Source: an uncultured Candidatus Saccharibacteria bacterium (lineage in GTDB: Bacteria; Patescibacteriota; Minisyncoccia; Phycocordibacterales; WO2-35-19). From it: DNA of 64,000 nucleotides. Location of the stretch: assembly GCA_964589445.1 (NCBI GenBank), contig CAZPQX010000002.1, positions 352 to 64,351 of the forward strand, read 5' to 3'. This document shows positions 23,785-26,718 of this stretch, piece by piece (within the stretch, counting starts at the first letter, position 1; each line of letters opens with the position of its first letter). The notes under the pieces were generated by a model that saw only the letters and a program-made list of their open reading frames with translations, was not told the origin of the DNA and ran no database searches. A program made the position numbers and the translations under genes.

Positions 23785-26718
23785 ATGAATAATTATGATC
23801 ACAAAGAAATAGATAAGAAGTGGCCCCACTCCGCTGAAGCTTCGCGGGGCAAGCAAGAGTATAATCATCGAGAGATTGAGTCTAAATGGCAAGAAGTTTG
23901 GAATAAAAATAAACTTTATAAAACAGAGGAAGATCCAAGTAAACCCAAGTCTTTTGTTTTGGACATGTTCCCTTATCCTTCTGGAGAGGGCTTGCATGTC
24001 GGTCACCCCAAGGGCTACATCGCTACTGACATTTATTCCCGTATGAAAAAAATGCAAGGGCACAATGTCTTGCACCCAATGGGATGGGATGCTTTTGGAT
24101 TGCCTGCGGAGAACTTTGCTATAAAACATAAAATTCACCCAAGAGTTGCAGTAGAAAAAAATATTCAAAGATTTAAAGAGCAGCTTTCAAAAATTGGTTT
24201 TAACTATGATTGGGGCAGGGAAATAAATACTACAGATCCAGAATACTATAAATGGACACAGTGGATATTTTTGAAGATGCTCGAAAAAGGTTTGGCTTAT
24301 GAATCTTATGAACCGATAAACTGGTGCCCTTCTTGCCAGACTGGTCTTGCAAATGAAGATTTGGAGTCAGATGGTACTTGTGAACGCTGTGGCTCTGTCG
24401 TAGAAAAGCGCCCAATGCGACAGTGGGTTTTGAAAATAACAGAATACGCAGACAGGATGCTTGAAGATTTGAAACTTTTGGATTGGCCTGAATATATAAA
24501 GGAGGCTCAGAGGAATTGGATAGGTAGGAGTGAGGGGATGCTCTTCAGTGCTCCAGTAAAAGATACTGACTTAAAAATTCAAACATTTTCAGCGCATTTC
24601 GAAGGTTTTGCTGCAGATACTTTTGTTGTAATCGCACCAGATCATCCGTTTTTGCCACAGTTGGTAAAAGGGACTGAAAAAGAAAAAGAAGTTTTGGAAT
24701 TTGCTCAAAAGCTCGTGGAAAAAAGATTGGCTCAAGGGTTTGCTGCCGAAAAAGAGTCAGAAGGGATTTTCACTGGTCGTTATATTGTTGATCCGGTGGG
24801 TAATGGAGATTTGCCAATTTGGGTGGCGAGTTATGCGCTCGCTGATTATGGTACGGGTATAGTGAAATGTTCTGCTCATGATGAGCGAGATTTCGCCTTT
24901 GCGAAAAAATACAATGTTCCCTTGAAAGAAGTTTTGATCCCAAGGATGATTGACTATACCAACCCTCATGTTGAAGGTAAAAAGGTAGTTTTTCGAAAAG
25001 CTGTTATTGTACTTCTCAAAAATCCAAAAACTGGTGAAATATTGACTTTGAAATGGAAGAAGCAGCCCTGGGTCACTTTTGTCATGGGAGGAATTGAAGA
25101 AGGGGAAACTCCAGAACAGGCGGCAGAAAGGGAAATAAAAGAAGAAACTGGTTATCAAAATATAAAAAATATAAAAATTTTGGGTGGTCCGACCCAGGCA
25201 GAATTTTTTGCAGCTCACAAGGATGAAAATCGCATCACCAACTCGTGGCTTGCGGTCGCTGAGCTTGCTGATGAAACTCAAGAAAGTTTGTCCGATGAAG
25301 AAGCTGCGATACATGAACTTGAATGGGTTGATCCAGAAAAAATAGATCCTAAAAAAATCCAGCATAGCGAGGCTGCACTTATCTTGGATAGGATGAAAAA
25401 TGGAGTGAAGGCTTGGACTGATATGAAAAACAGTGTACTTTTGGCACCAGAGCAGTTTAAAGGAAAGATTGCGGGAGAAGTACGACAAGAAATAATCGAA
25501 TATTTAGAAAAAAATAAATTAGCTGAAAAAAAGACCACATATAAAATAAAAGATTGGGTGTTTAGTAGGCAGAGATATTGGGGAGAGCCAATACCTGTGA
25601 TCCATTGCGAAGAGTGTGGGGTCGTAGGCGTGCCCGAAAAAGATTTGCCGGTGAGACTTCCTGATGTTGAAAATTATCAGCCGACAGGTACTGGTGAGTC
25701 TCCGCTTGCCAACATTGAGAATTGGGTAAATACAACTTGTCCTAAGTGTGGTGGTGCTGCAAGGCGCGAGACAAACACGATGCCTCAGTGGGCAGGGTCT
25801 TCTTGGTATTATTTGCGCTTCATGGATCCAAAAAATAGTGAGAAACTTGTCGACCCCAAAAAAGAAAAATACTGGGCGCCTGTTGATGTGTATGTCGGGG
25901 GGGACCATGCGGTGAGACATCTTATATATGCTAGGTTTTGGCATAAGTTTTTGTTTGACATTGGCTCTGTGAGTACCGAAGAGCCTTTTGCTAGATTGGA
26001 ATTCTTGGGATTTATTTTGGCAAAAGACGGAAGGAAGATGAGTAAGAGATGGGGGAATGTGATAAATCCTGACGATATAGTTGATTTGTGGGGAGCAGAT
26101 ACCTTGAGGCTCTATGAGATGTTTATGGGCCCATTTGAAAACACGATTGCTTGGAAAGATGAAAGTCTTATAGGTGTCAGGAGATTTTTAGAAAGGTCTT
26201 GGAAATTTGCGCATGGCAATTTTGTAGATCAAGATTCTCAAGAAAAAAATCAAAAAATAGAGTCATTACTACACAAAACAATCAAAAAAGTAACTGAAGA
26301 CATAGAAGGTTTCAAATTCAATACCGCCATTTCTACGATGATGATCTTGCTCAATGAATTTGAGGCGAATAAAGATTTGGTTTCTAAAGAATATGTCGAG
26401 GTATTTTTGAAACTTTTGGCCCCTTTTGCTCCTCATATGGCCGAAGAGATATGGTCTGGTTTTGGAAACCAAAAATCAATACATTTGGAAGAATGGCCAA
26501 AGTTTGACGAGTTAAAAACCAAGGAGACAGAGGTAAAAATTATGGTGCAGGTAAACGGCAGAGTGAGGGCAAATTTCGTTGCAAATGCTGGTATTTCTGA
26601 AGAAGAAGCCAAAAAACAGGCCCTCGCCATGCCAGAAGTTCAGAAGTGGATTCAAGGTCTTAGCATAGAGAAGACAATCTTTGTTGTGGATAAGCTTCTG
26701 AATATCGTTGTAAAATAG
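23785..26718 (+). CDS. leuS: leucyl-tRNA synthetase with an embedded Nudix hydrolase domain
   Basis: HVGHPKGY (HIGH), KMSKRWGN (KMSKS) and a LeuRS-specific anticodon-binding C-terminus. A [22 protein letters not shown] Nudix box lies within an insertion of about 150 aa (about nt 24940-25420). Confidence 0.9.
   Translation: [977 protein letters not shown]

Follow-up and report, generated by a model that had tools for sequence, protein, structure and literature searches.

A Nudix hydrolase domain inserted in the CP1 editing domain of a leucyl-tRNA synthetase from the Patescibacteria

The leuS locus and its inserted domain

Leucyl-tRNA synthetase (LeuRS) with its CP1 domain is one of the best-studied proofreading systems and serves as a drug target (benzoxaboroles). 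To our knowledge, no bacterial LeuRS with a second, unrelated hydrolase inside CP1 has been described. Here, we analyse such a protein, which is encoded by leuS in a 64,000-nucleotide stretch of DNA (contig CAZPQX010000002.1; referred to as the window) from an uncultured Candidatus Saccharibacteria bacterium. The gene product is a bacterial-type housekeeping LeuRS: it scores 955.7 bits with the equivalog model TIGR00396 (leuS_bact; cutoff 548.4) and 683 bits against the LeuRS of Thermus thermophilus (1h3n). Its full LeuRS domain set and signatures (Table 1) are those of the enzymes from Thermus (1h3n and 2byt) and Escherichia coli (4aq7 and 4arc), and the CP1 fold was matched by Foldseek. It departs from known bacterial LeuRSs in two respects. 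The first is a Nudix domain of 158 residues in place of a loop of the Thermus enzyme, whose residues 362 and 386 flank the insert in the alignment. The second is the threonine-rich (T-rich) editing motif, which reads SAHFEG, although the editing aspartate and the GTG motif are kept as in the known enzymes.

Table 1. Features of leuS and of the encoded LeuRS (positions in the window)
Feature	Residues	Positions	Strand	Basis
leuS open reading frame, uninterrupted; bacterial-type housekeeping LeuRS, host of the insert	977 aa	23785–26718	+	TIGR00396; Pfam tRNA-synt_1, tRNA-synt_1_2, Anticodon_1
HIGH signature, HVGH	71–74	23995–24006	+	direct reading; aligned to Thermus HMGH
CP1 editing domain, portion N-terminal to the insert	243–386	24511–24942	+	PF13603
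SAHFEG, S-type counterpart of the T-rich editing motif TTRPDT	269–274	24589–24606	+	gapless alignment to Thermus TTRPDT
Editing-site segment YGTG...AHDERDF, editing Asp retained	355–370	24847–24894	+	Thermus alignment
Inserted Nudix domain, 158 aa	387–544	24943–25416	+	pairwise alignment to the insert-less orthologue P0022
Nudix box, GX5EX7REUXEEXGU	435–457	25087–25155	+	direct reading
Family-specific HKDENR motif	478–483	25216–25233	+	K479, N482 and R483 invariant in alignment A2
CP1 C-terminal part, hinge and return to the catalytic core (TDMKNSV...)	545–600	25417–25584	+	aligned to Thermus 386–430 and P0022
KMSKS signature, KMSKR	751–755	26035–26049	+	direct reading; Thermus alignment
Anticodon-binding domain	823–934	26251–26586	+	PF08264, E = 4.4e-26

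The identity of the insert is clear from its profile match and its fold. The Pfam NUDIX profile (PF00293) aligns with residues 403–529 of the window LeuRS at E = 6e-19 (68.8 bits against a cutoff of 21.1; profile positions 2–127 of 134), and structure prediction confidently gives the alpha/beta/alpha sandwich of Nudix proteins. In the Nudix box, the final hydrophobic position ('U') is occupied by tyrosine and the metal-binding glutamates are present. A preliminary description, made from the sequence alone, had proposed about 150 extra residues with a canonical Nudix box within LeuRS; a genuine Nudix domain of about 150–160 residues is confirmed, and the profile searches that it had suggested score above their cutoffs for both the Nudix and the LeuRS models. 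Its limits for the insert, 24940–25420, are changed by only a few nucleotides when the window protein is aligned with P0022, an orthologue from a syntenic locus (L065) that is 79.8% identical across aligned residues and has a 14-residue loop, ENQELKEKVEKLEV, where the window protein has the Nudix domain. The placement in the protein needed a larger correction. PF13603 matches residues 243–389 (128.7 bits, E = 2.3e-37, profile positions 1–145 of 185), and about 45 CP1 residues and the hinge (...KIKDW) come after the insert. The Nudix domain is thus not situated between a remnant of CP1 and the catalytic core; CP1 itself is complete, and the insertion lies within it, in one of its surface loops.

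Could the insert be an artefact (chimeric assembly or frameshift fusion) or an ordinary region, namely a normal variable loop of LeuRS misread as Nudix? Apart from its prior, this explanation can call only on a related JGI contig with a frameshift-fragmented leuS. Against it stand the uninterrupted open reading frame (ORF), the equal GC content of the insert and of the remainder of leuS (0.403 for both), a 100%-identical protein (P0019) recorded independently from NCBI and Logan on three contigs, and dozens of orthologues with an insert at the same site, from which it follows that the insert is neither an assembly artefact nor a chance motif. With the Pfam match and the confident fold added, we regard this explanation as already refuted, its probability being close to nil, and the presence of a real, inserted, accessory Nudix domain as practically certain. 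On the JGI contig itself (L004, 1050–3979), the leuS of a close relative, whose Nudix part is 58% identical to that of the window, is broken into at least six small ORFs, probably by sequencing frameshifts rather than as a real split gene.

An AF2 model of CP1 together with the Nudix domain has a pLDDT of 91.2, a pTM of 0.81 and confident linkers, and it suggests, indirectly, that the Nudix lobe sits rigidly on CP1, with a fixed placement. Among the Foldseek matches, there is no solved LeuRS structure that covers both CP1 and Nudix (TMq ≤ 0.46).

A separate observation concerns the start of the gene. A LeuRS N-terminal motif is present twice at 23794–23889 (residues 4–35), with 19 of 30 nucleotides identical and a spacer of 12 residues. 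P0025 has a similar duplication and most relatives have a single copy; the actual start codon of leuS may lie further downstream.

Distribution of the insert and types of CP1

Relatives were collected with the full-length LeuRS as a query, and the best 120 were examined. PF00293 was found in about 80 of these 120, and the named relatives all derive from metagenome-assembled genomes (MAGs) of Patescibacteria (Parcubacteria GW2011_GWC1_34_10, Paceibacterota, Nomurabacteria, Taylorbacteria, Vogelbacteria and Minisyncoccia). An exhaustive hidden Markov model (HMM) search of 1.84 billion representatives gave 221 clusters at 50% identity that match at E ≤ 1e-30. The choice of the query was decisive: a word-index protein search with the short insert returned 18 short matches and missed both the identical 977-residue protein and the full-length LeuRS–Nudix relatives, so that rarity judged from it would have misled. 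The public sequences are annotated as leucine--tRNA ligase or as 'class I tRNA ligase family protein'. Among relatives from the candidate phyla radiation, where the preliminary description had advised looking, the same insertion recurs in many LeuRSs of Patescibacteria.

The preliminary description knew of no described LeuRS–Nudix fusion. As far as publications are concerned this still holds, since full-text literature searches found no description of a LeuRS with an embedded Nudix domain or of any free protein derived from CP1, the matches being coincidental co-mentions; the fusion itself, on the other hand, is common in Patescibacteria, and sequences with it have been publicly available from the GW2011 genomes onwards. 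No curated NCBIfam model for a LeuRS with Nudix appeared in our scan, whereas an exception model for isoleucyl-tRNA synthetase (IleRS) with GNAT did. This model, NF040702 (isoleucine--tRNA ligase, N-acetyltransferase domain-containing), is similar in that an unrelated domain, a small-molecule enzyme, is part of a housekeeping synthetase of class Ia; it differs in both partners, being IleRS and not LeuRS and GNAT and not Nudix, and the window protein scores 59.7 bits with it against a cutoff of 1999.

The leuS locus is syntenic in several relatives, with the order YchF, membrane protein, leuS, sigma70_r4/HARE-HTH, DUF8128 and YceG, and four insert states were observed at such loci. Taking the insert-less P0022 as a reference, we place site A ahead of 'LDWPE' and immediately upstream of CP1, and site B in the N-terminal hairpin of CP1; site C is the one used in the window. 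The window has Nudix at site C, L065 has no insert, L066 has the ITPase-like Ham1 at site A, and L057 has Nudix at site C in addition to a separate Nudix gene upstream. P0022 and P0024, which are encoded by syntenic orthologues and are 80–97% identical to the window LeuRS over the whole length, lack exactly residues 387–544. Since near-identical LeuRSs without the lobe exist, the lobe is, as judged from these orthologues, accessory and dispensable, and leucylation does not need it.

The region around CP1 accommodates a variety of enzymes. Site A holds one or two Nudix domains or Ham1, and in one orthologous leuS Ham1 is present at this site without any Nudix; site B holds an alpha/beta-hydrolase (Ser_hydrolase). 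Two further insert sites were seen beyond A–C, one of which, further downstream, holds a HAD domain. Relatives with other hydrolases around CP1 include P0065 (L066, 8001–11066), P0027, P0112 and P0039. In some relatives, a single LeuRS has three Nudix domains, all of this subfamily: a tandem pair ahead of CP1 and a third at site C, each scoring more than 120 bits against the family HMM. These triple-Nudix proteins (P0041, P0061, P0067, P0072, P0080, P0083 and P0139) are 941–1309 residues long, P0139 being the one of 941 residues.

The second difference from known LeuRSs, the SAHFEG motif, proved to be independent of the insert. Three sharply conserved types of CP1 were found among the 120 closest LeuRSs: the T-type with 'VFTTRpDTlFG', the N-type with 'MYNSVPQTYrAETFTVIAP' and the S-type of the window. 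The canonical TTRPDT of Thermus aligns without a gap to SAHFEG, and not to the 13-residue string that the preliminary description had called a degenerate T-rich motif. The S-type motif occurs in 59 related LeuRSs, where it is conserved at 80% or more, so that SAHFEG is best seen in this alignment as a conserved alternative CP1 type and not as decay. The segment YGTG...AHDERDF, including the editing aspartate, is kept in all three types; AHDERD of the window aligns with AHDQRD of Thermus, and G131-T132-G133 and H140-D141 are invariant in alignment A5. Because S-type CP1 occurs both with and without Nudix and because Nudix is also found in LeuRSs with the canonical T-type VFTTRPDT, the variant motif is unrelated to the insert. 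A link between the non-canonical T-rich motif and Nudix was considered and rejected for this reason.

These results bear directly on a suggestion of the preliminary description, namely that the Nudix domain could hydrolyse misactivated aminoacyl-adenylates (for example Nva-AMP or Ile-AMP), an editing role with which it would make up for a CP1 defect. The location inside the editing domain and the non-canonical T-rich motif of the window would fit such a role. No pattern of compensation is seen, since Nudix is present equally in LeuRSs with canonical VFTTRPDT...AHDERDF and SAHFE-type CP1 also occurs without it; Ham1 can moreover replace Nudix. The chemistry would also be atypical for a Nudix enzyme, because an aminoacyl-AMP is an acyl-phosphate anhydride and not a nucleoside diphosphate linked to another moiety (X). 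We therefore consider an editing function very improbable.

The types of CP1 also draw attention to the history of the gene. Compared with P0021 and P0023, the window LeuRS is a mosaic: identity is 87–100% over residues 46–225 and 586–790 and about 20% over the body of CP1 (segment compared: 24505–24819, residues 241–345). From these comparisons, the T, S and N types appear to be discrete, very divergent cassettes that have apparently been swapped between near-identical LeuRS cores. A neighbour-joining tree of whole LeuRS mixes signals because the CP1 region is recombinant, so that gains and losses counted from it would be unreliable.

Catalytic residues and probable substrate class

Conservation was counted over 274 domain copies of the LeuRS-associated Nudix subfamily. 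The box residues are conserved in 227–272 of the copies and the catalytic residues in about 98% of them (G54 in 270, E69 in 272, E72 in 269, E73 in 272 and G75 in 269; R68 in 230, with lysine in 17 more). To these are added residues that are conserved specifically in the subfamily, namely R23, K98, N101, R102, E125 and W133, of which K98, N101, R102 and W133 are invariant. The near-invariant box together with the subfamily-specific residues speaks for selection on catalysis and on a specific pocket for the substrate, and on this pattern of conservation the domain is probably catalytically active.

The contrary view would make the Nudix domain a ligand sensor or a structural brace that modulates CP1 or LeuRS, as in regulators of the NrtR type. 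The fixed docking on CP1 suggested by the model agrees with it, as does a minority of copies with E60Q or R68A/K changes. However, the metal-binding glutamates of REx2EE are kept in 269–272 of the 274 copies, the tandem ones included, which would be unexpected for a pure binding module. A non-catalytic role is, if anything, slightly less probable than one in editing.

The substrate class can be narrowed by comparison with known families. No curated NCBIfam family reached its cutoff with the Nudix domain in our scan. The best matches are the RppH models (NF001934–NF001938), with 26–31 bits against cutoffs of 116–259, a resemblance that falls well short of membership. The domain does not belong to the MutT 8-oxo-dGTPases either (TIGR00586, 19.7 against 97.9 bits; NF008044, 23.3 against 148). 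In the PDB, the best sequence match (E = 7.6e-8) is AvrM14 (8dp8), an mRNA-decapping Nudix enzyme (bioRxiv 10.1101/2023.11.14.566975), with which the domain has a K..R motif in common: HKDENR of the window aligns with sKDtqRV of AvrM14. It is followed by NudB and by the diadenosine tetraphosphate (Ap4A) hydrolases of lupin and Aquifex, with DCP2 and DIPP lower in the list. The Ap4A hydrolase 1f3y matches at E = 5.5e-7, confined to the box region (profile positions 48–86), and 3i7u at E = 5.5e-6 over profile positions 35–112. An aromatic residue (F/Y) stands 17–18 residues after the Nudix box and resembles what we take to be the tyrosine marker of Ap4A hydrolases. Many RppH structures are among the Foldseek matches, and the structural neighbours as a whole form a flat mixture.

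The lobe resembles RppH/NudH and the asymmetrical Ap4A hydrolases, which are small Nudix enzymes of a single domain with 5'-polyphosphates as substrates, in its Nudix box and its size of about 160 residues. It is distinguished from them by scores far under the family cutoffs, by an identity of about 20%, by a signature of its own and by being embedded and not free. AvrM14, a secreted effector of a eukaryote, the flax rust, and 2azw of Enterococcus faecalis, a free, uncharacterized Nudix protein, show about 19–25% identity to the lobe. A scan of PADLOC-DB for defence systems gave only PDC-S07, with 20.9 bits over 28 residues of the Nudix box, which does not place the domain in a defence family.

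Association of the Nudix subfamily with leuS and CP1

The same Nudix subfamily is associated with leuS in three independent arrangements: as the insert at site C, singly or as a tandem pair at site A, and as separate genes upstream of leuS. The stand-alone proteins are 158–190 residues long and score 189–214 bits. Their genes lie 3 nucleotides upstream of leuS in L057 (8001–8534), 61 in L060 (8001–8492), 10 in L064 (5001–5573) and probably 7 in the case of P0305; the gene for P0307 lies 2.4 kb upstream of leuS in L059 (8001–8549), in a same-strand cluster of TatD, HD-nucleotidase and Nudix genes. The stand-alone gene of L062 is an exception, as it is not near leuS. Upstream genes are also present in genomes whose LeuRS already has a Nudix domain.

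A further arrangement dispenses with the synthetase body. In Firmicutes of the human and animal gut, about 50 species of Clostridia and Bacilli (Acholeplasmataceae and 'Tenericutes' MAGs among them) have a gene for a protein of about 280 residues in which a reduced CP1 (mini-CP1; PF13603, 51.7 bits) carries Nudix at the same CP1 position (L001, 6001–6864; L005–L055). Some genomes have two copies, and one variant is present on 420 contigs. The possibility that matches of 281–287 residues were fragments caused by genetic code 4 or by frameshifts was rejected, as the contigs show genuine stand-alone genes. The mini-CP1 lacks the T-rich motif, the editing aspartate and the central helical part of CP1; its invariant residues are E22, L23, Y25, G26, P81 and H83 (the ELIYG/PAH surface). 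The neighbouring genes belong to nucleotide metabolism and house-cleaning and encode Ham1, NTPase_I-T, other Nudix proteins, cytidylate kinase, HAD, GNAT and APH; assignments of two further recurrent neighbours in Firmicutes as CYTH-like and PRTase-like were dropped for want of Pfam support. Like AlaXp, YbaK/ProXp and DTD, the mini-CP1–Nudix protein is a derivative of a synthetase editing domain that lives as a separate gene. Unlike these free editing proteins, it has neither the T-rich motif nor the editing aspartate, and with both gone it is probably not a deacylase. In its trans-editing sections, a 2024 review treats only the INS superfamily, AlaXp and DTD and names no factor derived from CP1 (PMC11295145).

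The insertions at two internal sites, the tandem copies, the upstream genes and the mini-CP1–Nudix proteins are together evidence for a functional link to leuS and CP1. Our preferred reading, to which we assign a probability of about 0.45, is that the lobe is an accessory, active, LeuRS-associated Nudix pyrophosphohydrolase of the RppH/Ap4A-hydrolase/decapping substrate class. It stands in place of a short surface loop of CP1, on which it forms an extra lobe, and would represent a distinct LeuRS-associated subfamily. We infer that its substrates are probably nucleoside-5'-polyphosphate compounds, with dinucleoside polyphosphates such as Ap4A as the first candidates and related 5'-polyphosphate ends as a further possibility. 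Synthetases form Ap4A from aminoacyl-adenylate and ATP. The lobe would be coupled to LeuRS by obligatory co-expression and co-localization, and not by amino-acid proofreading.

The main rival to this reading is a passenger: a house-cleaning enzyme, similar to MutT or Ham1, that sanitizes non-canonical (purine) nucleoside triphosphates and for which the periphery of CP1 serves as a permissive landing pad with no mechanistic link. The Ham1, HAD and other hydrolase inserts and the house-cleaning gene neighbourhoods favour a sanitizer, and landing on LeuRS would guarantee expression in a reduced genome. It leaves unexplained, however, why one and the same Nudix subfamily should be linked to leuS or CP1 in four arrangements, why Firmicutes retain a conserved mini-CP1 scaffold around Nudix and why the lobe is apparently docked in a fixed position in the model. 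The sequence neighbours also lean towards the decapping and ApnA class and not towards MutT, as the TIGR00586 score indicates. We judge this explanation unlikely, even though it comes closest to the preferred one.

Two related proposals give CP1 itself a part in the reaction. In the first, CP1 would hold the acceptor end of tRNA while Nudix removes a 3'-pyrophosphate, as added by RelA/SpoT-homologue toxins, or processes a 5'-polyphosphate or cap, which would amount to a repair role. CP1 binds the 3'-CCA end, as stated in the review cited above (PMC11295145), and CP1 and Nudix stay together as a module where the body of the synthetase is absent. The closest relatives of known function act on RNA 5' ends (AvrM14, RppH and DCP2), the co-occurring HAD phosphatase domain could complete a dephosphorylation, and the CP1 region resembles a swapped hypervariable cassette, as at conflict-related loci. 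The case is purely inferential, though, and several findings run counter to it: the parts that the mini-CP1 has lost, the stand-alone paralogues of about 160 residues that are entirely without CP1, and the surroundings of the loci, where no toxin genes were seen and where PADLOC gives only the weak match to the Nudix box. The second proposal is wider. CP1 and Nudix would form a dedicated two-domain machine whose target is either the acceptor end of tRNA or an aminoacyl- or adenosine-nucleotide in the CP1 pocket, and CP1 would be a conflict-shaped cassette that collects hydrolases (one to three Nudix domains, Ham1, HAD and alpha/beta-hydrolase). Its possible tasks are the repair of 3'-pyrophosphorylated or nucleotide-modified tRNA ends and the destruction of aminoacyl-nucleotide toxins. 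If it were true, the mini-CP1–Nudix proteins of gut Firmicutes would count as the first trans-acting factors to derive from CP1. We hold both proposals to be improbable, and equally so; they rank below the passenger and above an editing function.

The recurrent architecture, with hundreds of clusters, up to three Nudix domains, neighbouring hydrolases, upstream paralogues and mini-CP1–Nudix proteins, is a classic comparative-genomic sign of an unexplained functional link. Should the link prove genuine, a new tie of translation quality control to the metabolism of nucleotides or RNA ends could come to light in ultra-small symbiotic bacteria; a carrier effect alone would still document an unusual packaging of house-cleaning enzymes in reduced genomes. 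The question is biochemically testable, owing to a natural allelic series with and without Nudix and with three types of CP1 on LeuRS cores that are 85–100% identical.

Two minor observations concern the remainder of the window. No tRNA genes were found by ARAGORN and no Rfam families at the gathering threshold in the 64 kb (1–64000). The alanyl-tRNA synthetase (AlaRS) encoded at 38279–40039 has only 586 residues (tRNA-synt_2c and tRNA_SAD), much under the typical bacterial length; as the AlaRS of the syntenic L066 has 590 residues, the short form looks typical of the lineage.

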